Source: Candidatus Curtissbacteria bacterium RIFOXYA1_FULL_41_14
GTDB taxonomy: Bacteria > Patescibacteriota > Microgenomatia > Curtissbacterales > GWA2-41-24
DNA length: 64,000 nt
Direction: 5' to 3'
NCBI GenBank assembly: GCA_001775095.1
Contig: MFCA01000025.1
Span: 116,075 to 180,074 of the forward strand
Positions 3,550 through 53,993 of this stretch are shown here, piece by piece. Both the position numbers and the translations under genes were made by a program. Position 1 is the stretch's first letter; every line of letters begins with the position of its first letter. The notes below the pieces were generated by a model, which saw only the letters and a program-made list of their open reading frames with translations, did no database searches and was not told the DNA's origin.

Positions 3550-4662
3550 TCATCTGAGATCTAAAGTTTCGCCCTTGAATGTAATATTTTTGGGTTTGAT
3601 GATGACTTGGCGGGGTCCTTTTTCTACGTAGCCGGCATTAAGACTTTTAAATCCGTTTTTGGGGATGATTTTTAGAGCTCTCGCGACGTCCCGTGACGGG
3701 AGGAAAATGGCGTAGTCCTGACCCATGTTAAAAGTCTGGTACATTTCAAAATCGTTGATTTTGGCATGTTTTTGAATAAAAAGAAATACTTCCTGAGGAT
3801 CAAAAATCTTTTCAACAACATAAGAACATTTTTGGCGCGCGCGCATGATCTTTCGCAAACCATGACCGGTAATATTTGAGATGTAATGGATTTGAATGCC
3901 AGCATCCAAAAGATCCTGGATTAATTTGGCATAGATGTTTGTTTTGGTAAGGATAGCTTCACCAAACGTTTTTCCATTTTTAAGTTTCGTTGCATAACCT
4001 TTTGGTAATTTAGCGGCAACTGCCCGGGCAAGGGAAATTCCATTGGCATTAATACCGGCAGACCTTATGAGTATAATTCTATCACCAATTTTAAGGTTTT
4101 GGTCTGTTACAAGGCGCTTTTTACTTTCGATTATTCCGACTGCAGAACCGGCTAAATCAACAGTGTTCGGCTTAATGATTCCTTTGAGTGTTGGTGTCTC
4201 CCCACCGCCCCAAGTCGCGCCCGCAAGATCACAAGCCTTTTTCCAGCCACTGATAAAATCTGTCATTCTATCCCTGTCATGTAACCAGTTATTATCTTCA
4301 ACTGCCCAATAAGCATGGACTACCAAAGGTTTTGCTCCAACCGTTGAAAGATCATTGATAAATGTAGCGACCGTATCCTGGGCAATAACATCATAGTAAG
4401 TTTTGCCGGTTATCTTTCTTACATCATCAGCAATTAAATTTTTGGTTCCAAGACATTCGACGACCGACGCCATATACACATCGCCCTGCTTCCAGACGAA
4501 GGCCGATTCACCGCGGGTTGCAGATACTTCAGAAAAGTTTGCTTTTTTAAGATGAACAGCAGTTTTTGCTGCGGCCTGTTGAGAAAGCTTGTTTACAGGA
4601 TCCTTCGTGTAATAATTATCGCCGACTTGGGCGTAAGTAATTTTTTGTCTCTTCATAATCAA
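3550..4662 (-). CDS. purM: phosphoribosylformylglycinamidine cyclo-ligase (AIR synthetase)
   Basis: PurM-like N- and C-domains over the expected length, within the pur operon. Confidence 0.8.
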   Translation of the reverse strand: MIMKRQKITYAQVGDNYYTKDPVNKLSQQAAAKTAVHLKKANFSEVSATRGESAFVWKQGDVYMASVVECLGTKNLIADDVRKITGKTYYDVIAQDTVATFINDLSTVGAKPLVVHAYWAVEDNNWLHDRDRMTDFISGWKKACDLAGATWGGGETPTLKGIIKPNTVDLAGSAVGIIESKKRLVTDQNLKIGDRIILIRSAGINANGISLARAVAAKLPKGYATKLKNGKTFGEAILTKTNIYAKLIQDLLDAGIQIHYISNITGHGLRKIMRARQKCSYVVEKIFDPQEVFLFIQKHAKINDFEMYQTFNMGQDYAIFLPSRDVARALKIIPKNGFKSLNAGYVEKGPRQVIIKPKNITFKGETLDLR

Positions 4663-4670
4663 CTCAATAT

Positions 4671-4734
4671 GTCATTCTGAGTGAAACGAAGAATCTCTAG
4701 TTCGTTACAGATCCTTCACTTCGTTCAGGATGAC
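4671..4734. repeat. miniature palindromic repeat 'GTCATTCTGAGTGAAACGAAGAATCT...CAGATCCTTCACTTCGTTCAGGATGAC'
   Basis: 64-bp imperfect palindrome, intergenic. Same family as 5412..5477 and 48533..48596. Resembles the widespread 'GTCATCCTGAGCG..GAAGGATCTC' repeat that generates spurious ORFs. Confidence 0.7.
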
Positions 4735-5401: not shown

Positions 5402-5411
5402 AACATCGACT

Positions 5412-5477
5412 GTCATTCTGAGAGAAACAAAGAATCTATTATTTCAATGCAGATCCTTCACTTCCGTTCAGGATGAC
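5412..5477. repeat. miniature palindromic repeat, second copy of the 4671..4734 family
   Basis: 'GTCATTCTGAGAGAAACAAAGAATCT...CAGATCCTTCACTTCCGTTCAGGATGAC'. Confidence 0.7.
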
Positions 5478-6262: not shown

Positions 6263-9199
6263 TTAATGAAATATCTCCCTCATTGGTTTTTGCCAAGCAT
6301 TTTTGAGTTTATCTAAATCAAGATTACACAGATTCTTGCTACCACTGAATACACTGATTGTTTTGTCGGCTACTGTTTTTCCAAAAATAGCGTACGGTAT
6401 TCCAGTAAAAAGTTTTTTGGCAATTTGCGGATTTTCAACTTCAACTAAAAATGTTCCGGCTGTTTCAGAAAAAAGGATAAAGTCGGGACGTAGATTCACC
6501 CCCGGGGTGTCCTCATGGTGTCGTCCTGACTTCACCCCGGGGGTGTCAGTCTGGGTGACTACTGAAGACAGGTCGACCTCTGTCCCGCAATTTCCTCCAA
6601 AACACATTTCGGCAAGTGCCGCAGCCAAACCGCCTTCAGATATGTCATGACAGGATAAAATTTGACCTTGTGTTATTCCTTTTGTGACCGAGCCAAAAAC
6701 TTTCGTAAGAGACTTGAGATCAATCTTTGGAATTTCTGGATCTTTCGTGCCGAGAACATCGAAATAAGTAGATCCGCCAAGATTTTTAAAATCAGGTTTA
6801 CCAACTAAAACTATCGTTGATCCTTCTGATTTGAAATCAGAGCTGACTGTTTTTCTAACATCGGGAATTTTGCCAAAGACAGAAATAAGAAGGACAGGTG
6901 GTATCTTGAGAATTTTCCCCGAGGGGTACCTGTAAGTTGACGAAAGACTGTCTTTACCTGAAATAAATGGCATTTTTAAAAGTCTGGCCATATCAGAGCA
7001 GGCATCCACTGACTGGTCTAAGTCAAAAAGTGATTCTTCGTCGGGAAATGGCCAAATGAAATTGTCGATAAGAGCGGCGTTTTTAATATCACCACCGCAG
7101 GAGATGAAATTTGAAACCGCTTCAACAATTGCCCAAATGCTTCCCCCGTATGGATCAATAAGGTTAAGGGTGGGATTTAAACCATGGGTTATTACAACAC
7201 CGTATGGTTTTTTGAGGATTGGTCTAACAATAGTCCCGTCATTGGGTCCGTCTAAATTCACCCCGCTAAATGGATGCAGGGCATTTGTCCCTTGGACATT
7301 GTGGTCATACATTCTGACAATTGGTTCTTTGGAGCAGACATTGCCATGAGAAAGAACCTTCTCAAAAATCTCCTGCCAGTCATCTGCCTTTTTAGGAAGA
7401 GGTGGTAGTTTCTTGTTTCTTGTTTCTCCCGACCTCGTCTCGACTCGGTCGAGGACGGGTTGTTGCTTGTTTCTTGTTGTCTTCATGACTCTTTGAGGTA
7501 GTCCGTGATGTAAAAATTGCATTTCCAGATCACAAACTGGCTTTTTATCAAAAGTAACTCTTAGACGTTTAGAACCGTCGAATTTACCAATTACAGTCGC
7601 CTCAACGTTGTGAAGTTGGCAGATTTGAACAGCCTTTTTGAGATTTTGGGGATCAATTGCTAAAACCATTCGTTCCTGCGATTCGGAAATAAAAATTTCC
7701 CAAGGGGAAAGACCGGAATATTTAAGCGGCGCTTTCTCCAAAAAGACACGGGCGCCGATTTTTTGGCCCATCTCACCGATTGCCGACGAAAATCCACCGG
7801 CTCCGCAATCGGTGATTGCTCTTATTAATCCTTGATCGCGAAGGTCGTAAACTGCATCGATCATTCTTTTTTCCTCAATGGCATTGCCGATCTGAACCGC
7901 TGAACCTAAGACCGTTATTGTCCGATCTGTCATTTCTCCGGAGGAAAAAGTTGCTCCATGGATACCGTCTCGGCCAGTTCTACCCCCGATTGTTACAATT
8001 AGATCCCCTACTTTGGGGAATTGTTTTTTAGCGATTTTTTTGGGGATCAAACCGTAAGAACCGACCCCCACTGTGCATTTGGCGCGAAAATCCGGATGAA
8101 AATGCACGGATCCGTTATTTGTAGGGATGCCTACCCTGTTTCCGTAATCGCGGACTCCGGCAACAACTTTGCGCAGGATGTAGTCGGGAGGTAAACATCC
8201 GGGAGGAATAGATTTTGATGGAAGATCAGGCGGCGCAAAACAAAAAATATCAGTTGATGCGATAATTTTTGCACCTTTACCTGTTCCTAAAACATCACGA
8301 AAAACTCCACCGGAACCGGTCATTGCCCCACCGTACGGTTCAATTGCGCTAGGACTGTTGTGAGTTTCGACTTTGCCGGAAATTGCCCATCCGTCATAGA
8401 AATCAATGACACCGGAGTTATCGACAAATGCCGAAATGATCAGTTTTTTATTGTAGTTTGCTGTTTGCCGAATCCTGTCTATCAAGGGTTTTTTGACTTT
8501 TCCATCAACAATCAATTTTGCTTTGAAAGTCTTGTGGACGCAGTGTTCACTCCAGGTTTGAGCCAGGACTTCAATTTCGCAATCAGTCGGATCACGGCTG
8601 ATTTTGGCAAAATAGTTTTTAATTATCTTCATTTCCTGGCGGTTTAAGAAAAGACGATCTTTGGAAAGTTCCATTAACTGGCTATCTGATAGATTTCGAA
8701 CTGGGATTTTTTCGACTTTACCCTTTTGACCGGAAATCATCAGTGTCTTAGGAGGTTTTTTGACAACTTGTTCGACCGTTTCATTAACCAGAAGCCTATT
8801 CGTTATTATTGAGAGATCTTTGTCTTTCACCTTTCCCCAAAAGGCGTATTCGGTTGAGGTATCGGCAGCAGTCAATTTAATTTTCAAATCAGATGCTGCC
8901 TTGAGGAGCGATCCAACTTCAGGATTCATTACGCCGGGTTTATAGGCGACTTCGATTTTTTTATCGAAGCTGGAGAAAATTGGTTTGTTAAAAGACATTT
9001 GTTGATTAATTGGTTCAAATAAAACAGCTTGAGAAAATTTTTGGGCATCAGAGAAAGAGATTCCTTCAAGGCGGTAGACTTTGGATGAGCGGATATTTTT
9101 GATTGATTTGATGCCAAGCGTCCTTTTAATTTCGGCGAGGAGCTCCTGGCCTTTGGAATCGGTGGGGCTATTTGCAGTAATCCTTATTTCATAAATCAT
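6263..9199 (-). CDS. purL: PurS-PurL fusion: FGAM synthase II with an N-terminal PurS domain, carrying two in-frame repeat insertions
   Basis: First ~80 aa are PurS-like, followed by PurL AIRS/AIRS_C domains. At 978 aa it is ~150 aa longer than PurS+PurL. The extra length includes 'TDTPGVKSGRHHEDTPGV' and 'QQPVLDRVETRSGETRNKK', both encoded by palindromic repeats. Confidence 0.85.
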   Translation of the reverse strand: MIYEIRITANSPTDSKGQELLAEIKRTLGIKSIKNIRSSKVYRLEGISFSDAQKFSQAVLFEPINQQMSFNKPIFSSFDKKIEVAYKPGVMNPEVGSLLKAASDLKIKLTAADTSTEYAFWGKVKDKDLSIITNRLLVNETVEQVVKKPPKTLMISGQKGKVEKIPVRNLSDSQLMELSKDRLFLNRQEMKIIKNYFAKISRDPTDCEIEVLAQTWSEHCVHKTFKAKLIVDGKVKKPLIDRIRQTANYNKKLIISAFVDNSGVIDFYDGWAISGKVETHNSPSAIEPYGGAMTGSGGVFRDVLGTGKGAKIIASTDIFCFAPPDLPSKSIPPGCLPPDYILRKVVAGVRDYGNRVGIPTNNGSVHFHPDFRAKCTVGVGSYGLIPKKIAKKQFPKVGDLIVTIGGRTGRDGIHGATFSSGEMTDRTITVLGSAVQIGNAIEEKRMIDAVYDLRDQGLIRAITDCGAGGFSSAIGEMGQKIGARVFLEKAPLKYSGLSPWEIFISESQERMVLAIDPQNLKKAVQICQLHNVEATVIGKFDGSKRLRVTFDKKPVCDLEMQFLHHGLPQRVMKTTRNKQQPVLDRVETRSGETRNKKLPPLPKKADDWQEIFEKVLSHGNVCSKEPIVRMYDHNVQGTNALHPFSGVNLDGPNDGTIVRPILKKPYGVVITHGLNPTLNLIDPYGGSIWAIVEAVSNFISCGGDIKNAALIDNFIWPFPDEESLFDLDQSVDACSDMARLLKMPFISGKDSLSSTYRYPSGKILKIPPVLLISVFGKIPDVRKTVSSDFKSEGSTIVLVGKPDFKNLGGSTYFDVLGTKDPEIPKIDLKSLTKVFGSVTKGITQGQILSCHDISEGGLAAALAEMCFGGNCGTEVDLSSVVTQTDTPGVKSGRHHEDTPGVNLRPDFILFSETAGTFLVEVENPQIAKKLFTGIPYAIFGKTVADKTISVFSGSKNLCNLDLDKLKNAWQKPMREIFH

Positions 9200-10550: not shown

Positions 10551-10709
10551 AGATAAATTTCTAAATCCTAAATCCTAAATCCTAAATCCTAAACAAATTC
10601 TAATGACCAAAATCCAAATTTCAAAACTTTTTATTTTTTTTGAATTTAGATTTTTGATATTGTTTAGAGTTTAGATATTAGTGCTTAGGATTTATTTAGG
10701 TCAATTAGG

Positions 10710-11695: not shown

Positions 11696-11770
11696 CTTCC
11701 ACTCTCTGCGTCATTCCCGCAAATGCGGGAATCTATACAATAATTTGATTTGGGGAATAAAAAAGATTAC

Positions 11771-12241
11771 GGGAAGAGAGTAAGCCAGATTCTGTTTTAC
11801 CCTTCGATTACACTCAGGGTAAAACCCTGAGCTTGTCGAATGGGTTTTAACGATCATCTATCTCGAAATGACAATTTGATCATTTCGGCTCGCCTTTTGG
11901 GCGGGCTGCCCCTACTTAGAACCTCCCGGAAGCATGGTCAAACGGTTCTAGTCTGGGTTGCAACAGGTAGGATTGTCAGCGTTTCACTCCCGCTCGTCTC
12001 TGTGACTCTCAAGTCTTGTCAGTTCAAGACCTGTTCTAAACCCCGTATGCGGGGAACATCTGCTGTGGAGCAGACAAGGGTCTAGACACCAGCTATTAGC
12101 CTTCGACTGTACTCAGGCTACCCTGAATTACATTGAAGGGTACTAGTCGGAGCTTACACTCCGTCCCTTGCTTCCTGTTGTCTGGACTTTCCTCCAGGTA
12201 CCGTACGGTACCTGGCGATCGTTCTTCTTCCCGAAATCAGA
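11771..12241 (-). ncRNA. rnpB: RNase P RNA (bacterial type)
   Basis: Minus strand carries the conserved 'GGAGGAAAGUCCAGAC' (P4 5' strand) near the 5' end and 'ACAGAAUCUGGCUUA' (P4 3' strand) near the 3' end, plus 'GUGAAACGCUG'-like segments. A T-run and the hairpin 'GATTCCCGCATTTGCGGGAATG' follow the 3' end. Confidence 0.7.
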
Positions 12242-21098: not shown

Positions 21099-22403
21099 GT
21101 GATAAACATTGACAGATTTTCCATTGCTTTTATCATTTTTCTGACATTTTTTTCGCTTATTCTTCGCACCTACCGGCTGACTGAGCCGAATCATTATTAC
21201 TTTGATGAGGTTTATCATGCGGTTACTGCCAAGGCTTATGCAGATAATAATCCGGCAGCATATAATCCTTTTTCACCGCCGCCTAAAGAAGGGACAGCTT
21301 ATGACTGGCTTCACCCGCCTCTTGCGAAATTAATCCAGGCAGGATCAATAAAAATCTACGGGGATGTGTCTTTCGGGTGGCGTTTGCCAAGTTTGGTCTT
21401 TGGAACTGCAATTATTCCTGCTACTTTTATTCTTGCCTATATCCTTTTTGGTCCACTGGCAGCCATTTTTGCATCGACTGTTATTGCCTTTGAAAATCTG
21501 ACGTTTGTGATGAGCCGTATTACGATGAACGATGTATTTGTGACCTTTTTTGTGATTGTGTCGTTCATTTTTGCTGCTTTGTATGTTAAATCCACCTCCC
21601 AAGAGTCAAAGTCCACCTCGAAGGTTACTCTCTATTTATTATTGACAAGTATTTTCTTAGGACTTGCCTTGGCATCGAAGTGGACCGGACTTTACGCCAT
21701 AGTTGTTATTTTCGGGTATATTGTCTGGCCAAGTATCAAGAAGAATGAATTCTATTTTAAATTTTTACTGCTTTTAATAGTTCCAATTCTGATTTATCTT
21801 GGCAGTTACGGACAGTTTTGGATTCAAGGCCATAGCATCCGACAGTTTATTGATCTTCACAAACAAATTTGGTGGTATCAAAATACACGAAATCTTAAGC
21901 ATTCCTATTCAACAACACCGCTTTACTGTGTTCCAGAAGGTTTGGACGGACCTAAAACTTGGTGCCCGTGGGCCTTGGATACTCGGGGCGTCTATTTTTC
22001 ATATGAACAGTACGGCACTAAGGCCGGCTACATTTATGCGCTGGGGAATCCGTTGATTCTATGGGCAGGAATTGTGGCTGTTTCTTATCTTATTGGAAAA
22101 TTTATTGAGGAAAAATCAAAAACATATCTTTTGGTGCTTGCGGGTTATTTTATCTTTTGGCTGCCCTGGATTTTTACTCCGCGGGTTTTATTTTTTTACC
22201 ATTATCTTTCCTCAATACCGTTTCTGTCGATTGCGCTTGGATTAACCCTCGCTAAATTATTTGGAACAAAACTTGTGTTTATTTCGATTTTAATCCTGGG
22301 AATTTTTATAGCGGTCTTTTTCTATTTTTACCCGATATCATCCGGTTGGCCAATTGAGGTTGCGGCTATTGAAAAATACATGTGGCTTAAGACCTGGCGT
22401 TAG
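21099..22403 (+). CDS. glycosyltransferase family 39 (polyprenyl-phosphate-mannose protein mannosyltransferase-like)
   Basis: Canonical PMT first-loop motif 'YFDEVYHAVTA', polytopic. Confidence 0.7.
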   Translation: MINIDRFSIAFIIFLTFFSLILRTYRLTEPNHYYFDEVYHAVTAKAYADNNPAAYNPFSPPPKEGTAYDWLHPPLAKLIQAGSIKIYGDVSFGWRLPSLVFGTAIIPATFILAYILFGPLAAIFASTVIAFENLTFVMSRITMNDVFVTFFVIVSFIFAALYVKSTSQESKSTSKVTLYLLLTSIFLGLALASKWTGLYAIVVIFGYIVWPSIKKNEFYFKFLLLLIVPILIYLGSYGQFWIQGHSIRQFIDLHKQIWWYQNTRNLKHSYSTTPLYCVPEGLDGPKTWCPWALDTRGVYFSYEQYGTKAGYIYALGNPLILWAGIVAVSYLIGKFIEEKSKTYLLVLAGYFIFWLPWIFTPRVLFFYHYLSSIPFLSIALGLTLAKLFGTKLVFISILILGIFIAVFFYFYPISSGWPIEVAAIEKYMWLKTWR

Positions 22404-22472
22404 CTAAACTTCGCGAATTGGATGCGAATTTGATTAATGCGAATAGATGCGAATGAGCGTATGGGTACTGAC

Positions 22473-23747
22473 TTAGTGAACGGCACTTCGAGGATTACCT
22501 TTGTGATTAATTAGCTTATCAAGGATCTGGAAGCGGCGCTGTTTTTCTTTGTAGGAAACATCATCGTCAAACGCTTTCGCAGCGGCAGTATTTGGTCGAG
22601 GGGAGTATTTGGCAATATAAGCATAGGCAAAATTAACTGTTTGAGCTAACTTAACTGTGTTTTGAAAATTTCTTTCGCTTTCTTGGCAAAAGCCGACAAT
22701 AATATCTGTCGAAATCTGAGTGTCGGGAATCTCCTTTCTGATTTTTTTGACCAAATTGATATACTGGCTCGCTGTATACCATCTATTCATTTTTTTAAGC
22801 ATTTGGTCATCTCCGGACTGAACAGGCAGATGAATGTTTCTGTCAATTTTGGGATTTTTGGAGATTGTCTCGATGAGCTCATCGGAAAAATCCCAGGGAT
22901 TTGAAGAAATGAATTTAACCGTTTCAACTCCCCCACTTCGTCCGGCTTTGCCGGACTTCGAGGGGCAAGCTTCTATTTTGCAAACTTCTTCAAGAAGATA
23001 AGGAAACAATGTTGGAATTCGCAATTTTCCCAAATGCTTTACCATCACCGGTTTAACTACTCGACCATTAGGAAGCTTATAACCGGCTTTTGTATTTTTG
23101 ACTCGATCAGATCCATATGAATTAACATTTTGGCCAAGGAGGGTAATTTCTCGGCATCCTCTTTCCGCCAGTTCTTTGACTTCATCGATAACATCTTCAA
23201 ATGGCCTTGATACTTCTTGCCCTCTGGTAAAAGGTACGACGCAATAAGTACAAAAATTATTGCAGCCGTTGGAAATTGGTATCCAAGCATGAGTTGCGTC
23301 ACTTCGAAGTGCCGGATAATTAAAACCAACCTCTTCCAGAGGTAAAAATTCATCAACTTGGGGTATTCTCTTGTGAAGAGTATTAAGATACTTACCACTC
23401 GTGTCCCTGGCGACCATTCCAGTCATGCAGCCGGTAAGAACAATTTTAGGCCTCCGGCCCGGTCTCCGACGTAGAGACGTCTCTGACTCGGAACGAGGGC
23501 CTCCGGCCCGGTGGGCCTCTTTGATAATATTTCTGATAAATCCGGTCACTTTATCTTCTGCAGATTGACGGACCATGCAGGTGTTGATGATTATTTCAGA
23601 AGCTGATTTGAGATCCTTTGCCCTTTTAAAACCCCTTGCCAAATAGTAACTGGCAATTCTTTGGCTATCTGCCCAGTTTTGCTGGCAACCGAAAGTTTTG
23701 ATGTAAAATGTAGGAGATTTCATTGTTAAATTGTTAAATACGCACAA
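22473..23747 (-). CDS. radical-SAM methylthiotransferase (MiaB/RimO family), with two in-frame GC-rich repeat insertions
   Basis: N-terminal MTTase 'KTFGCQQNWADSQ', radical SAM core and TRAM-like C-terminus. Insertion peptides are 'RAGGPRSESETSLRRRPGRRP' and 'CPSKSGKAGRSGG'. Confidence 0.7.
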   Translation of the reverse strand: MCVFNNLTMKSPTFYIKTFGCQQNWADSQRIASYYLARGFKRAKDLKSASEIIINTCMVRQSAEDKVTGFIRNIIKEAHRAGGPRSESETSLRRRPGRRPKIVLTGCMTGMVARDTSGKYLNTLHKRIPQVDEFLPLEEVGFNYPALRSDATHAWIPISNGCNNFCTYCVVPFTRGQEVSRPFEDVIDEVKELAERGCREITLLGQNVNSYGSDRVKNTKAGYKLPNGRVVKPVMVKHLGKLRIPTLFPYLLEEVCKIEACPSKSGKAGRSGGVETVKFISSNPWDFSDELIETISKNPKIDRNIHLPVQSGDDQMLKKMNRWYTASQYINLVKKIRKEIPDTQISTDIIVGFCQESERNFQNTVKLAQTVNFAYAYIAKYSPRPNTAAAKAFDDDVSYKEKQRRFQILDKLINHKGNPRSAVH

Positions 23748-25031: not shown

Positions 25032-25134
25032 AATTTGAAATTCCTGCCTGCCGGCAGGCAGGTGCAATTTGACATTTGAAATTCCCGGCCTTGTCTCGAC
25101 TTTGTCGAGGACGGGTTGAAATTTGAAATTGATA

Positions 25135-27161: not shown

Positions 27162-27233
27162 CAACATCTTCTTCTTTCAGTCGGGTTGATTTTTAGCCTT
27201 ATTTGGGGTATATTGCAGCCTTGGAGGGAACAA

Positions 27234-27617
27234 ATGCCGGAATATGACAAAGAGAGAGCTGCAGGGAGTCTGACTGGTGAAACAACTAGTACCAGTTCTG
27301 ACGAAGCGATCAGGGCAATTCTTAGAGATTTAGCTCGTGAATATCACGGTCTCCGTAACACAGAGAAGACTGATGACGCAGAATTGTTCTCAGCAACAGA
27401 ACAATTGCCTCCGAGACCGATAGGCAGTACATTCCAGCAACCCATAATTACTGAAATTAAGCTTCCTGATTCTTTGAGAGAACCTTCTGAGGAATTAACT
27501 GGAAATCAAATTGCGGGGATTAAAGCAGAACAAAAGGTAGCGTATGCGGAACAAGATGATAGGAAAAGACGAAAATTTCGTTTTCCCCTTGGACTTCTAA
27601 ACGTACTTTTGCATTAA
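27234..27617 (+). CDS. hypothetical acidic low-complexity protein
   Basis: Upstream 'TTGATT-17-TATATT' and RBS 'GGAGG' 7 nt before the ATG. No recognisable domain. Confidence 0.45.
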   Translation: MPEYDKERAAGSLTGETTSTSSDEAIRAILRDLAREYHGLRNTEKTDDAELFSATEQLPPRPIGSTFQQPIITEIKLPDSLREPSEELTGNQIAGIKAEQKVAYAEQDDRKRRKFRFPLGLLNVLLH

Positions 27618-27628
27618 GATTTTAGAAA

Positions 27629-27901
27629 TTACTTAATGAGTCTCTTGAGGGTTTTGCCTGCGGTAAAGCCGGGAAGTTTGTGGCCGGCTATTTGAATCGT
27701 GTCACCGGTTTGAGGGTTTCTGCCTTTACGAGTTGCTCTGCTTCTAACTTCGAAAGTCCCAAAACCGGTTATAACCACTTTGTCGCCTTTCGAAAGAGAC
27801 TCTTTAATTAACCCAAAAACTGAATTAACCGAATCAAAGGCAGCTTTTTTAGTTAGCCCTACTTTTTTGGAAAGTTTTTCTGTAAGTTCTTTTTTAGTCA
27901 T
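27629..27901 (-). CDS. hup: DNA-binding protein HU
   Basis: 90 aa with '[21 protein letters not shown]' arm motif. Confidence 0.9.
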   Translation of the reverse strand: [90 protein letters not shown]

Positions 27902-27961
27902 TTGTTAAATGCGAATGTATGCGAATGGTTAAAATCTATCTTACAAGATTAGATTGTTCTA

Positions 27962-27996
27962 ACAAAGCATTATATCTCAAAAAATATTATTGTCAA
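27962..27996 (-). promoter_or_regulatory. sigma70-like promoter (TTGACA-17-TATAAT) for hup, flanked by ATGCGAAT-type direct repeats
   Basis: Minus strand reads 'ATTCGCGTACATTCGCATTTGACAATAATATTTTTTGAGATATAAT'. The same ATTCGC(A/G)TACATTCGCATTT box recurs abutting the hup ATG. Confidence 0.55.
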
Positions 27997-28015
27997 ATGC
28001 GAATGTACGCGAATA

Positions 28016-29524
28016 TTACTTGGCGATGTCAACTGCTCGAGTTTCTCGAATAACTGTAACCGTAATTTGGCCAGGATATGTTAATTCCTTTTCCAGTTTT
28101 TCTCGAATAGCGTGTGAAAGAGTAACTATACCATCATCGTCAACCATGGTCGGCTCGACAATTACCCTAACTTCTCTGCCAGCCTGAATTGCGTAAGCTT
28201 TATCAACCCCCGAGAAAGAGGCCGCAATTTTTTCAATATCCGAAAGACGCCTCAGGTAGTCTTCAACTGGTTCATGCCGGGCTCCGGGTCTGGCACCGGA
28301 AACTGCATCGGCAATATGAACAATCACTGATTCTATAGAAGTGAAGGGCTCGTCTTCATGATGTTGAGCAATACAAGCAATAACTTCTTTGGGAAAACCC
28401 CATTTTTTAGCAAGTTCCACTCCTAGCTGGACATGAGTGCCCTCTTTTTCTACTTCGATTTTTCCGATGTCATGAAAAAGTCCGCCAGTTGCGCAAATGG
28501 TAACATTGGCGCCTAATTCTTCGGCAATTTTTTTGGCAATTTTGGCTGTTTCAATAGACGCTATCAGTTGATTTTGGCCGTAGGAATATCGGAATTTTAA
28601 TCGGCCTAATCCATCAAGGGCTTCTTGGGATAAGTTGTAAAGACCCAATTCACCGGCAGCCCGCCTGCCTGCTTCAGACATATCTTGGTCCACTAATCTT
28701 TTGGCTTTGGCAACTGATTCCTCTATCCTTGTGGGCTGGATCCTCGTATCTTTTACTAGCCACTCCAGTGCAATTCTGGCAATTTCACGGCGAATTGGAT
28801 CAAATGAAGAAAGCCTCACCTCATCTGGTACATCACTATCCAGTTCGACATCAACGCCGGTTGCCAGTTCAAAAGCCCGGATGTTGCGGCCTTCTTTGCC
28901 GATAATTCTGCCTTTAATATCTTCAGACTCCAGCTTTACAACAGAAACTGTGTATTCGGCTATCCAGTCAGTAGCACCGGCAATCATGGCATTGGCCAGT
29001 ATTTCGCGGGCCAGATGTTGCGACTGCGACTTAATTTCTTCTTCAGCCTCTTTTATCCTTTTGGCAACTTCATCTTTAAGTTGAGATTCTAAATTTTCGA
29101 TAATGAGTGTTTTTGCTTCTTCGGATGTCAAAGAGCTTGTTTTTTCAAGTTTGGTAACAAGATCGCTTCTTAGCCTGGAAATTGCATCCTCTTGAGTGGA
29201 TAAAGCAACCCTTAGGTCTGCTAACTGTTTCTCTTGTTTTTCGATTTGAGCTATTCGCTGATCAAGTGAATCTTCTTTGGCCGCTATTCTTTTTTCAAAC
29301 TCTAAGGATTCCTGTCTAATCCTGGTAGCTTCTTCTTCGGCGGCTTTTCTTATGCGGTAGGCTTCGTCTCTGGCGTCTTGAATTATCTCGCGAGCCGTAG
29401 CTTTTATATCGAACCGATCTTGTCGTCCTGTTGATTGTTTACCAACAGAAACCACTACCCTTTTAGGATTCTGGGTTAATCTTTTTTTCGGTTTTTGGCC
29501 TGGTAAAATTCCAAATGGTGCCAT
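28016..29524 (-). CDS. rny: ribonuclease Y
   Basis: N-terminal coiled-coil, KH domain and HD domain ('FHDIGK'). ~500 aa. Confidence 0.85.
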   Translation of the reverse strand: MAPFGILPGQKPKKRLTQNPKRVVVSVGKQSTGRQDRFDIKATAREIIQDARDEAYRIRKAAEEEATRIRQESLEFEKRIAAKEDSLDQRIAQIEKQEKQLADLRVALSTQEDAISRLRSDLVTKLEKTSSLTSEEAKTLIIENLESQLKDEVAKRIKEAEEEIKSQSQHLAREILANAMIAGATDWIAEYTVSVVKLESEDIKGRIIGKEGRNIRAFELATGVDVELDSDVPDEVRLSSFDPIRREIARIALEWLVKDTRIQPTRIEESVAKAKRLVDQDMSEAGRRAAGELGLYNLSQEALDGLGRLKFRYSYGQNQLIASIETAKIAKKIAEELGANVTICATGGLFHDIGKIEVEKEGTHVQLGVELAKKWGFPKEVIACIAQHHEDEPFTSIESVIVHIADAVSGARPGARHEPVEDYLRRLSDIEKIAASFSGVDKAYAIQAGREVRVIVEPTMVDDDGIVTLSHAIREKLEKELTYPGQITVTVIRETRAVDIAK

Positions 29525-31510: not shown

Positions 31511-31584
31511 CGGGGTGTAGTTCAGTTGGCCAGAACGCCAGGCTGGGGGTCTGGAAGTCGTCGGTTCAAGTCCGACCACCCCGA
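31511..31584 (+). tRNA. tRNA-Pro (anticodon GGG)
   Basis: Cloverleaf by hand: acceptor CGGGGTG/CACCCCG, D-arm GTTC..GAAC, anticodon arm CCAGG-CU GGG GG-TCTGG, T-arm GTCGG-TTCAAGT-CCGAC, discriminator A. No encoded CCA. Confidence 0.75.
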
Positions 31585-32987: not shown

Positions 32988-33471
32988 TTTTTGATTTTCG
33001 CGGATTTGTAGCGGATTTTCGCTGATTTTTGGTCGTCGCAGAGGACACAGAGGCTCTTTGCTTTTTCTTAATTCTCTGTGCCTTCTTTTTATTCTCTGTG
33101 TTTTCTGTGATCCCTTCTTTCCAGTCTAAAAGCTCAATTCTGGCCATTGGGGCATTATCTCCGCGCCTGGGACCCATTTTAGTAATCCTTGTAAATCCGG
33201 ATGTCCTATTCTCGTAAAGCCCTTTGGCCTGTTTAAATAGACTTTTAAATGCCTGGCTGGTTAATTTAGACGCCAGTAGTCTATTTGAGCTAAGGCGATT
33301 CTTTTTCGCTTCTGTTACTAATTTCTCAACCTGAGACCTGGCAAATTTAGCCTTCGCCAGGGTGGTATTAATAGAACCATTTACAAACAGGGAGCTTGTT
33401 AAATTACCAAGCAGCGCGTGTCTCGCGTTAGTGTCCCTGTTAAGCTTACGTCCAAATCTTGCGTGCCTCAC
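32974..33471 (-). CDS. rplQ: 50S ribosomal protein L17, with basic C-terminal extension
   Basis: 'MRHARFGRKLNRDTNARHALL'. Confidence 0.85.
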   Translation of the reverse strand: MRHARFGRKLNRDTNARHALLGNLTSSLFVNGSINTTLAKAKFARSQVEKLVTEAKKNRLSSNRLLASKLTSQAFKSLFKQAKGLYENRTSGFTRITKMGPRRGDNAPMARIELLDWKEGITENTENKKKAQRIKKKQRASVSSATTKNQRKSATNPRKSKNEKH

Positions 33472-41129: not shown

Positions 41130-41184
41130 ACGCCCTCCTTCGTCGGGAATTTTAAATTTAAAATTTCAAATTTAAAATTAATTA

Positions 41185-43502: not shown

Positions 43503-43595
43503 ATGCTCTCCTTCGGAGGAATTTCTAATTTCTAATTTCTAATTTCCAATATTTGAAATTTGACATTTGAAATTGGTAATTATTTGAAATTCTCA

Positions 43596-44237: not shown

Positions 44238-44318
44238 AGAACCTCCCTTCGATCGGTAGTGAAAAGTGAAAAGTGAAAAGTGAAAAGTTATTGAAAAATT
44301 TTTCTAAATTTTGATTTG

Positions 44319-45035: not shown

Positions 45036-45077
45036 GTTTGCATAAGATTCTTAAGTCACCTAAGTCACTTAAGTAAC

Positions 45078-45899
45078 TTATTTTCTCTTCCTTTGCAGGA
45101 TGAATTTCCCTGACGGTTTATTCTTACTTCTGGTCTTTTTAAAAGCCGGTTTACCCCAGGGGGTCTTAGGATGCATACCAATGCCGGATTTACCTTCACC
45201 GCCTCCATGCGGATGCGAGCCCGGATCCATGGCTACGCCTCTAACTTTTGGTTTTTTGCCCATGTGGCGGAGCCTGCCGGCTTTACCAAAAGTAATATTT
45301 TTCCAATCAGCATTGCCCACTTGACCAATAGTCGCAAAACAGGCGGCATTAATTTTTCTAAGCTCCTTTGAAGGAAGTTTAAGGTGAATCCATTTGCCTT
45401 CTTTAGCTGCAATAATTGCTCCTGTTCCGGCGCTTCTAACTATTTGGGCACCAGCCCCAGGTGTTAATTCGACATTATGAACGACTGTTCCGATTGGCAT
45501 TTTTCCTACCGGTAGTGCATTTCCTACTTTAATATCAGCTTTTTCTCCAGCAATAATCTGATTGCCTACCTCAAGACCTAGCGGTGCCAAAATGTACTTT
45601 TTCTCGCCATCCAAATAATGCAGAAGGGCAACATTGGCTGATCTATTTGGATCATATTCAATAGCGGCAACACGAGCCTTAATATCTCGTTTATTGCGGG
45701 TAAAATCAACTATTCTTAGATTTCTTTTATGCCCCCCTCCTTTGCCTCTCACTGTGACTCGACCACCAGATCTGCCTCCGGCTTTTGACAAAGGCGCAAC
45801 CAGACTTTTTTCCGGTTTAGTTTTGGTAATCTGCGAAAAATCTAAACCGGTTTTAAATCTGGTTCCCGGTGTTTTTGGTTTATAAACTTTGATTGTCAT
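45078..45899 (-). CDS. rplB: 50S ribosomal protein L2
   Basis: L2 family, 273 aa. Confidence 0.9.
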
Positions 45900-46271: not shown

Positions 46272-47110
46272 TTAGCGACTCCTATTGCCTCTTTGGATAG
46301 CAATATATTTCTATTCTTAATAATTTCGAAGGCATTGAGATTGGCCATACGACTGACTAGTATTCTCTGAATATTTCGCGTCGCCAGTTTCACATCTTGT
46401 CCATTGTTTACCGGTTTGTCGGAAATTACTAAAAGACAATTTCCTTGTAAATCTAATTTTTTAAGTAAACTTGCAATAATTTTCGTCTTAGCTTGAATTT
46501 TTTCGATATTAGTAATTACTTTGACACTTCCTTCTTGGGCTTTTAATGAAAATGCACTCACCAGAGCCTTTCTTTTCATTTTCTTAGGCAAAGTTAAAGT
46601 TACCTTTCTGAATTTAGGGCCATGGGCAACACCTCCGCCTACCCAAAGCGGTGAGCGGATTGATCCTGCGCGGGCTCTGCCAGTGCCTTTTTGGCGCCAG
46701 GGCTTGCGGCCCCCGCCTCTTGTCTGGGAACGAGTTTTTGTAGAACCCGCGTGAACTGACTGGTTTACCGAATAGATGCGAATTGCCTGGGCTAAAAGCT
46801 TTTCGTTTGGCTTTTGACCGAAAATTTCGCGAGGAAGAGCAACTTTGCCAATAGATCGGCCGTTTATGTCAAAAGCAGGAGCCAAAAGTCCTCCACCAGC
46901 GGATTTAACCTGCCTGCCGGCAGGCAGGCTCTTGACGGTTTTTGTCTTTCTCGGTGCCTTCTGTTTATCTTCTGTGCCTTCTGTGATTATCTTTTTATCC
47001 ACGATCTTAGAACTGGTCTTCGATCTAATTTTGACCTGTTTAGATTTTGCTATCTTTGTTATTTTTTTTGCTGCTGCCATAATTATTTCTCTTGAAACCA
47101 CTGAGAGCAC
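46268..47110 (-). CDS. rplD: 50S ribosomal protein L4, with ~75-aa N-terminal extension containing an in-frame palindromic repeat ('LPAGRQ')
   Basis: L4 core begins near 'FDINGRSIGKVALP'. The extension contains 'CTGCCTGCCGGCAGGCAGG'. Confidence 0.8.
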   Translation of the reverse strand: MLSVVSREIIMAAAKKITKIAKSKQVKIRSKTSSKIVDKKIITEGTEDKQKAPRKTKTVKSLPAGRQVKSAGGGLLAPAFDINGRSIGKVALPREIFGQKPNEKLLAQAIRIYSVNQSVHAGSTKTRSQTRGGGRKPWRQKGTGRARAGSIRSPLWVGGGVAHGPKFRKVTLTLPKKMKRKALVSAFSLKAQEGSVKVITNIEKIQAKTKIIASLLKKLDLQGNCLLVISDKPVNNGQDVKLATRNIQRILVSRMANLNAFEIIKNRNILLSKEAIGVAK

Positions 47111-47917: not shown

Positions 47918-48147
47918 TTTTACACCAAAAAGGCAGGACTCCTTAGATGTCTTCAGGTGTCCCACCACAACGATTTTAAAATGTTCTGTTAATCGTTAAT
48001 GGCCAGTTGTTATTAAATTTTTTACTTATTAACCTCCGCCGTAAAATTTCTAATTTCTAATTATTCTAATTTCTAATCAATTCCTAAATTTAAAAATTTC
48101 TAAATTATTTAGGTCAATTAGGTTACTTAGAGCAATTAGAAATTAAC

Positions 48148-48456: not shown

Positions 48457-48532
48457 AGTTATCTTCTTTTAATGTGCTACTCTTATTGACTAATGATTAG
48501 AGACTAAGGACTATACAAGTTTCGCACTTTTT

Positions 48533-48596
48533 GTCATTCTGGCTTGTCCAGAATCTGATTCTGGATGCGCTCGTTTCACTCGCTTACCAGAATGAC
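48533..48596. repeat. miniature palindromic repeat 'GTCATTCTGG...CCAGAATGAC', related to 4671..4734
   Basis: 64-bp inverted repeat in the tuf-rpsJ spacer. A partial copy lies at 48738..48765. Confidence 0.6.
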
Positions 48597-48848
48597 AAAT
48601 ACGGTTCGAGTTGGAAAGTCGAGAAGAAAACTATTCTAAGCGGTTAGGCTTGAAGTAAAATCTTGTGATTATCATACCTTTATAGTTCTCGACTATGCTC
48701 GAACAATAATTAGATTCTATCGTCCTTCGATAAACTCAGGACTCCAGAATGACATTTGATTGTCAATTCTATATCAGCAGGTCGCCCTTCGACAAGCTCA
48801 GGGCGCTCCTCTGATATATCAGACTCAGCGGAGCTGAGGGCTGATATC

Positions 48849-53805: not shown

Positions 53806-53850
53806 TAAGTTATAAGTTATAAGTTATAAGTTGTAAGTTAAAAGTTAAAA
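53806..53850 (-). repeat. heptamer tandem array (AACTTAT/AACTTTT x7 on the minus strand) in the rpsL 5' leader
   Basis: Perfect and near-perfect 7-bp units between a 'TGATATAAT' extended -10 and the rpsL ATG. Confidence 0.7.
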
Positions 53851-53993
53851 GTTGTTGAGAAATTATATCAGAAACTTGGCCGCTTTTCATTGTATTTTTG
53901 CCCTTTCCGGACTAGTAGGAATTAAGCGGCCAATTATATCAGCTGTCGCCTTCTGAAATGCAGAAGTATACTCCACTGATATAATTGTCAGGC

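Follow-up and report, generated by a model that had tools for sequence, protein, structure and literature searches.

Duplicated ATTCGC boxes around a Curtissbacteria hup promoter as possible copies of a REP-like dispersed repeat

Why should the promoter of the gene for HU, the main nucleoid protein, lie between two copies of the same short box? The question is raised by hup in Candidatus Curtissbacteria bacterium RIFOXYA1_FULL_41_14, a member of the Candidate Phyla Radiation (CPR), and we addressed it in a 64,000-nucleotide stretch of contig MFCA01000025.1 (called the window throughout) and in related loci of other genomes. A preliminary description of the locus had read the boxes as an operator-style binding array, possibly for HU autoregulation, while allowing that the motif might be a mere fragment of a dispersed repeat without promoter association. 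Our analysis largely bears out the latter, since related arrays occupy every spacer context and one array in the window lies where no promoter can be. The duplicated box is probably not an HU-specific operator, as repeats of its kind also lie between unrelated genes and in many other bacteria. We favor, with about an even chance of being right, the reading that the boxes are copies of a dispersed intergenic repeat resembling repetitive extragenic palindromic (REP) elements, whose 8-mer is probably a recognition unit and which was laid around an older hup promoter.

The hup gene (27629..27901, minus strand; 90 aa; PF00216, E 9e-30) follows rny, which encodes RNase Y (28016..29524, minus strand; 502 aa), and the spacer between them holds two of the three window copies of a 25-nt module, composed of two ATTCGCAT units 10 nt apart and a terminal TTTRACAA. 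Box 1 (ATTCGCGTACATTCGCATTTGACAA; 27990..28014, minus strand; 8-mer units at 28014-28007 and 28004-27997) begins 1 nt past the rny stop codon, and its final six-plus bases form the -35 region of the hup promoter (27969..27996, minus strand), with TTGACA at 27996-27991 and TATAAT at 27974-27969. Box 2 (ATTCGCATACATTCGCATTTAACAA; 27902..27926, minus strand; units at 27926-27919 and 27916-27909) lies in the predicted hup 5' leader, ends at the ATG and is flanked by a direct repeat of TTTAAC (GTTAAA on the plus strand at 27904-27909 and 27928-27933). Read on the minus strand, the spacer runs from the TAA stop of rny through T, ATTCGCGTAC-ATTCGCAT, TTGACA, 16 nt, TATAAT and 42 nt to CC-ATTCGCATAC-ATTCGCAT-TTAACAA-ATG. 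The promoter matches the sigma-70 consensus at 12/12 positions and is the sole perfect match in the 7.8 kb scanned (21.9-29.7 kb).

The duplicated box and the consensus promoter are present as first described, with some correction of detail. The promoter spacer measures 16 nt and not 17; the overlap with the -35 hexamer is true of the 25-nt module, within which the hexamer lies, whereas the nearest 8-mer unit directly abuts it with a 0-nt gap; and the second copy reaches the hup ATG only as a 25-nt module, its last 8-mer ending 7 nt upstream. The hup leader is predicted to fold no more stably than shuffled sequence (z = -0.58). We also considered the absence of a Shine-Dalgarno sequence as a peculiarity of hup and rejected it, as many window genes lack one.

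An independent repeat search recovered the same module as one family, with 27902-27926 as reference and copies at 27990-28014 (92%) and 22430-22454 (84%). The third, diverged copy belongs to what we call Cluster 3 (22404..22472, minus strand), the 69-nt spacer between the stop codons of two convergent genes, a PMT/GT39 gene (22401-22403, plus strand) and a MiaB-like gene (22473-22475, minus strand). Further units had been reported there, and we find four, with minus-strand ATTCGC at 22454, 22444, 22429 and 22418 (GCGAAT at 22413, 22424, 22439 and 22449); the first two units and the next spacer match Box 2 at 22/26 bases. The gene identities also hold (HU, RNase Y, PMT/GT39, and UPF0004 plus radical-SAM for the MiaB-like protein). 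A spacing of about 10-11 bp had been given for the units inside the box; the pitch is 10 nt in both hup boxes, and Cluster 3 shows intervals of 11, 15 and 10 nt. The cluster is bounded by a duplicated TTAG (22400-22403 and 22473-22476), and every unit of the window reads AUUCGC on the strand that is sense for rny, hup and miaB. As a separate observation, the first two units pair into a 6-bp hairpin (TTCGCG...TGCGAA) on the plus strand (22410-22428), and with the TTTGATTAAT that comes next they make a weak terminator-like site after the PMT stop.

The motif count in the window is not a product of chance. Against an expectation of 2.5, exact ATGCGAAT is present 8 times, a count reached in 0 of 100 shuffles, and six of the eight matches fall in the three intergenic clusters, the other two (46776 and 48251) being single and intragenic. 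Neither GCGAAT alone nor its one-mismatch variants are enriched in the window, so the signal resides in the clusters. Across the clusters, at two loci 5.5 kb apart, ATTCGC is identical in 8/8 units and ATTCGCAT in 6/8, and the inter-unit spacers differ (AC, TT, CT, TAATCAA, CCA). All three window arrays are extragenic (3/3), and no further ATTCG array was found in about 18 kb of flanking sequence from the same organism.

Comparison with relatives indicates how this arrangement may have arisen. Rifle aquifer contigs encode HU without any change and have an identical spacer, and RNase Y matches a partial Candidatus Curtissbacteria protein (CPR, Microgenomates) at 100% identity. Six loci were retrieved by way of RNase Y homologues and several others by way of HU, and all keep the gene order recA-recX-rny-hup. 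In four relatives, whose RNase Y is 74-78% identical, the rny-hup spacer measures 26-59 nt and carries a TTGAC-N17-TATAAT-type promoter and no unit. L122 and L166 have a homologous promoter, TTTGACAAT...TATAAT, and L126 has TTGACG-N17-TATAAT without units. By this comparison the hup promoter is older than the units. The preliminary description had named conservation in relatives as a check, and the outcome divides: units stand at positions matching those of the window in pairwise alignments of L121, L122 and L166, in a different variant, and are absent from L123-L126 and L168; L167 has a single ATTCG 4 nt before the ATG. In L122 and L166 the window-like promoter has no unit upstream of its -35, and the leader contains four units, three of ATTCGGAT and then ATTAGGAT, ending 4 nt before the ATG. 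In the closest relative, L121 (94% nucleotide identity in rny), the spacer is 183 nt long and just 45% identical to that of the window, with four extra inverted NCGAAT units past the rny stop, one ATTCGGAT 2 nt before the -35, and ATTCGGATAAATTAGGAT before the ATG. Box 2 is orthologous to CCATTCGGATAAATTAGGAT in L122, L166 and L121, and Box 1 is absent from L122 and from L123-L126.

The hup units differ in concert between genomes, with ATTCGC in the window and ATTCGG in the relatives (ATTCGGAT/ATTAGGAT). L121 and L122 share ATTCGGATAAATTAGGAT where the window has ATTCGCATACATTCGCAT, and every other unit of the window has ATTCGC. As gene identities give the tree ((window, L121), L122), the units shared by the relatives mark ATTCGG/ATTAGG as the older state, and the alignments indicate that all window units have switched to ATTCGC and that two units have been added upstream of the promoter. 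Besides this, in L121 (5362-5389), L122 (8560-8605) and L166 (about 3600-3642) the hup ATG is preceded by ATTAGGAT as the final unit, which provides an AGGA Shine-Dalgarno sequence at a distance of 4-5 nt from the start; the ATTCGCAT version of the window has none. At the convergent site, the PMT and MiaB-like stop codons of five relatives overlap or adjoin (GCGTTAGTGGAC, with a single TTAG) and leave no spacer. Cluster 3 is a 69-nt insertion between TTAG copies, missing from 5/5 relatives examined. The copies in the window are homologous, absent or different in relatives, and bounded by short direct repeats.

On the reading that we favor, the 25-nt module would have been laid down or overwritten at three places in this Curtissbacteria lineage: from the rny stop to the -35 of the older hup promoter, before the hup ATG, and, as a longer version, where the PMT and MiaB-like genes converge. 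The 8-mer, at its pitch of about 10 bp, would be recognized by a single sequence-specific factor that binds nucleic acid, whether a host protein or a mobilizing enzyme of the element itself, and selection or conversion would keep the units within one genome identical. A factor sitting on the pair that abuts the -35 and on the one 7 nt from the ATG would, as a side effect, modulate promoter use and the access of ribosomes; the element itself would not be dedicated to hup or HU, and any effect on hup would follow from its position only. The constancy of the 8-mer, the concerted variant switch and the leader units kept in four genomes suggest recognition by a sequence-specific factor and, together with the varied spacers, argue that the boxes are not random filler. 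What survives of the operator-style array is therefore the look of one recognition unit repeated, with a constant core, varied spacers and concerted change; its specificity for hup, or for promoters, does not.

Several observations weigh against this reading. The window copies are direct repeats without an inverted partner, lacking the stem-loop palindrome of REP elements, in keeping with the unremarkable leader fold. No terminal inverted repeats were found, the ends of the Cluster 3 insert (CTAAAC... and ...GTACTGAC) not being complementary, and no transposase is associated with the element, none being present among 20 proteins neighboring arrays that were scanned. Copy number in the source genome is low, with two loci only in about 82 kb, and a search of the JGI metagenome collection found no copy of the exact 24-nt box. 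At Cluster 3 the duplicated TTAG may have been forced, as both genes need their stop codons. At hup, leader units stand at matching positions in four genomes, the window and L122 spacers are 72% identical, near the 77-83% of the flanking genes, and such retention looks more like maintained local function than like junk. Enrichment of extra arrays in other genomes over composition-matched control 5-mers is modest (12 against at most 11, median near 4), and the factor that would bind the units is still only putative.

The wider distribution of the arrays was examined by scanning one genome per species with the pattern ATTCGCRT-NN-ATTCGCAT, which returned at least 117 stretches. About a third of the matches listed are chance or coding, such as the conserved GIRVDSH stretch of biotin carboxylase, and at least 69 of the matches listed are intergenic, spanning all four orientation classes (42 co-directional, 18 divergent and 9 convergent). 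Several loci carry extra arrays away from the seeded match, and L066 has two homologous copies of about 95 nt. The usual layout in CPR genomes is [NCGAAT]n-loop-[ATTCGN]n; over 119 CPR units the consensus is ATTCG followed by C (0.52) or T (0.32), A (0.87) and T (0.70), with free spacers and a pitch of 8-11 nt or more. CPR arrays occupy the rplN-rplX, rplX-rplE, rplO-secY, nusG-rplK and atpF-atpH spacers, follow rpsR, and precede groEL, dnaE and murC. In one case, the only one of its kind, a CPR 23S rRNA gene (L088, about 7580-7722, minus strand) is interrupted at the tip of a hairpin (model position about 282) by a 143-nt insertion that holds five GCGAAU units and a degenerate complementary arm.

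A second form, with a pitch peaking sharply at 10 nt, is found in genomes of the kind grouped around Planctomycetes and Verrucomicrobia (PVC-type). It is a three-unit arm, ATTCGCGT-nn-ATTCGCAT-nn-ATTCGCGG, often facing an inverted arm, and its hosts are Verrucomicrobia, Planctomycetes, Victivallales (Lentisphaerae), Hydrogenedentota, Treponema and Elusimicrobia. Among the matches listed, the third unit ATTCGCGG is present in about 19 PVC-type loci from several phyla; because ATTCGCGG lies outside the search pattern, its recurrence is not a search artefact. The neighbors of these arrays have unrelated functions, among them a glycosyltransferase, an exbD pair (with the array between the two), aconitase, a LysR-type regulator, ABC transporters and a Mur-ligase-family protein, and one array separates the flavoprotein and Fe-S subunit genes of a succinate dehydrogenase/fumarate reductase. 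The arm, some 30 nt long and with the sequence ATTCGCGT-nn-ATTCGCAT-nn-ATTCGCGG(TT), was seen in L004, L019, L022, L038, L058, L060, L065, L069, L081, L097 and others, and in L097 (426-484) it makes a perfect 30-bp inverted repeat with a T run before and an A run after it. A phage origin of the arrays was considered and rejected: a scan of viral contigs was unenriched and gave mostly coding or chance matches with few pure tandem arrays.

Conceivably, though we think it improbable, all ATTCG-unit arrays form one cross-phylum intergenic class, with ATTCG[C/T]AT in CPR and the three-unit arm in PVC-type phyla as its members, read by a conserved or horizontally spreading factor (putatively a DNA-binding protein or a CGAAT-specific Mod-type methyltransferase) and acting as a punctuation or regulatory signal in highly expressed CPR operons, hup included.

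Among the other explanations, the one with the best claim, although still unlikely, is a dedicated operator, in which a transcription factor or HU binds the pairs flanking the hup promoter and acts by occlusion or looping. It draws on the unit abutting the -35 in the window and lying 2 nt from it in L121, on units between promoter and ATG at matching positions in four genomes (with one ATTCG in L167), on the joint G-to-C switch of all units, which fits co-evolution with a binding protein, and on the 10-bp pitch, which is typical of direct-repeat operators. It has to contend with the four units of Cluster 3, which lie between convergent gene ends with no promoter, with deeper relatives that keep the promoter and the rny-hup synteny unit-free, and with arrays elsewhere that are intra-operon, at 3' ends, in 23S rRNA or beside unrelated genes. 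Moreover, the box centers lie 88 bp apart, or about 8.4 helical turns, which puts the two boxes out of phase for looping; we know of no sequence specificity for HU; and no regulator gene adjoins the window arrays, the conserved neighbor gene at 27186-27617 having no Pfam domain. For HU autoregulation as first proposed we therefore find no support, given the promoterless arrays, the unrelated neighbors and the unit-free hup promoters of relatives. Somewhat less probable is an element acting at the RNA level, in the hup 5' leader and at the 3' ends of rny and miaB, as RNA-protein sites or as hairpins for processing or stabilization of RNase III type. The shared AUUCGC sense of all window units, the arrays in transcribed intra-operon spacers and in the 23S rRNA insertion, and the folding of inverted arrays at a predicted -17 to -74 kcal/mol speak for it, as do the last units that often lie 4-8 nt before a start codon (hup, L121, L122, groEL in L104 and secY in L012) and the Shine-Dalgarno sequence that such a unit gives in L121 and L122. 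Set against these are the lack of an inverted partner and of a stable leader fold in the window, the occurrence of arrays in both orientations relative to transcription, and arm spacers that are not complementary to each other. Sense and antisense stabilities of 17 two-armed co-directional arrays were equal in mean (10 against 6), and this lack of a G-U strand asymmetry gives no sign of RNA-level selection. Rfam has no family at the arrays in the window or at 18 related loci, permissive scans yielding sub-threshold microRNA-type hairpins only.

A neutral origin, in which slippage creates functionless tandem duplications in AT-rich spacers and the resemblance between genomes is due to chance and search ascertainment, seems to us quite improbable. 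It would fit the many other 7-10-nt tandem repeats just upstream of start codons in the window, the pure tandem arrays of variable copy number among the phage and bacterial matches (L127, L137, L141 and L053), and a genome scan that was seeded with the motif itself. Slippage, however, copies whole periods, whereas the present arrays combine a constant 8-mer with differing spacers; one and the same 25-nt module stands at loci 5.5 kb apart; and features that were not searched for recur, namely the inverted CGAAT arms in CPR and the third ATTCGCGG unit in PVC-type genomes. We give least credence of all to the arrays being clustered targets of an asymmetric DNA methyltransferase or a Type III restriction-modification system with the core CGAAT. 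Every unit contains CGAAT/ATTCG, the head-to-head arrangement CGAAT...ATTCG is the one that Type III enzymes need for cleavage, and restriction-modification systems cross phyla, which could explain a shared core. Genomes usually deplete restriction sites, however, and do not cluster them; eight bases are conserved here and not five; and neither the window nor its flanks contain a mod or res gene. The link is one of resemblance only, to CGAAT as the specificity of HinfIII and of the Mod enzyme of H. influenzae Rd, where Mod is an epigenetic regulator (PMC1976455).

The spacers of this genome hold other repeats as well. Short tandem repeats of period 7-10 in 3-7 copies lie upstream of starts at 10561-10593, 32993-33029, 41148-41179, 43520-43574, 44258-44288, 45050-45080, 48043-48139 and 53806-53853, mostly in the region of rpoBC and the ribosomal-protein genes. 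On the minus strand, for instance, AACTTAT stands about 7 times before rpsL, CTTTTCA and GAAATTA are each repeated about 4 times, and GATTTAG is repeated about 5 times. Some tandem units recur at distant spacers, as do TTAGGTCAA at 10696 and 48109 and AATTTCT at 43520 and 48045. With so many of them, repeat-filled spacers appear to be usual in this genome. Another dispersed intergenic repeat, TGTCATTCTGAG(T/A)GAAAC(G/A)AAGAATCT, is unrelated to ATTCGCAT and occurs at 4670-4696 and 5411-5437 (93% identical), with similar arms, GTCATTCTGG/CCAGAATGAC, at 48509-48620, and the GC-rich palindromic CCTGCCTGCCGGCAGGCAGG occurs at 25043-25068 and 46903-46928 as inverted 26-nt arms, 92% complementary, in a window that is otherwise 40% GC. 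RNA genes comprise a divergent bacterial class A RNase P RNA at 11765-12234 (minus strand; 76.9 bits against a gathering score of 100, E 2e-23), which spans 470 nt against a 367-position model and probably carries insertions, and a tRNA gene at 31511-31584 (plus strand), the only Rfam match in the window at gathering score.

The regulators known from the tiny genomes of CPR bacteria are very few, and hardly any cis-elements have been mapped in them. A unit repeated without change throughout a genome would be among the first candidate genome-wide signals in this group, the more so for one that changes variant jointly between close relatives, lies on both sides of the promoter of the main nucleoid-protein gene and recurs in the spacers of CPR ribosomal-protein operons. 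If the repeat is only selfish or neutral, the lesson would be that such boxes at CPR promoters should not be called operators without a genome-wide check.

The arrays were also compared with known systems. Literature on ATTCGCAT, ATGCGAAT, ATTCGCGG, CCGCGAAT and intergenic repeats of CPR/Patescibacteria yielded only primers and a CGCGAATTCGCG dodecamer, in a coverage that was incomplete, such that an earlier description may exist, and a survey of REP elements across phyla lacks the strings GCGAAT, ATTCGC and TTCGCG (PMC3733652). Dropped on sequence or architecture were the DnaA box, parS/Noc, LexA (CGAAC-N4-GTTCG), ARG box, Spo0A box and GlpR half-sites, the tRNA T-loop, anti-Shine-Dalgarno or 16S 530-loop pairing, and the IS5 terminal repeat (GGAAGGTGCGAAT...). 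The NusB/E BoxA was dropped because only TTTAACAA matches, and CsrA because its GGA is in the L121 and L122 units and not in those of the window.

Direct-repeat operators (Pho-box-type sites, plasmid iterons and the ParG/omega/MetJ ribbon-helix-helix sites) resemble the arrays in their short core, free spacer, pitch of about 10 bp and direct or inverted arrangement, and one ATTCG pair abuts a -35 hexamer. In contrast to such operators, the arrays have neither a cognate regulator nor a coherent regulon, do not mark the promoter regions of a coherent gene set, are spaced 8-11 nt or more in CPR, and are found as well at the 3' ends of genes, inside operons and in rRNA. The array of L088, in its 143-nt hairpin insertion on a conserved 23S helix, is like the intervening sequences and expansion hairpins of 23S rRNA; those of the window are neither in rRNA nor palindromic. 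Miniature inverted-repeat transposable elements share the discrete insertion relative to an orthologous empty site, the short duplications (TTAG at Cluster 3, TTTAAC at Box 2) and the several copies per genome, and Cluster 3 in particular combines an empty site with the signature of a target-site duplication, TTAG twice where relatives have it once, possibly forced by the stop codons. Unlike these elements, those with ATTCG units are just 18-70 nt long, have no terminal inverted repeats and go with no identified parent insertion sequence.

The nearest likeness is to REP elements, to the bacterial interspersed mosaic elements (BIMEs) built from them and to REP doublets forming hairpins (REPINs). 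Like these, ATTCG arrays are short, non-coding and intergenic, lie inside operons, between convergent genes and beside unrelated neighbors, often form inverted pairs, have a genome-specific consensus that changes in concert, and vary in presence between close relatives. Unlike them, they are composed of 8-mer units at a pitch of 8-11 nt in place of one 20-40-bp palindrome; the window copies are direct only and few, with no GTAG or CGTC terminal tag at the array ends and no REP-associated tyrosine transposase (RAYT, IS200-like) seen among the 20 array-neighboring proteins scanned, and the core is common across phyla. The palindrome of REP elements is nevertheless present in many of the related CPR and PVC-type arrays, although not in the window copies. 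In kind the boxes are a dispersed extragenic repeat, one set apart from its known counterparts by its 8-mer units, its cross-phylum core and its concerted variant switching.

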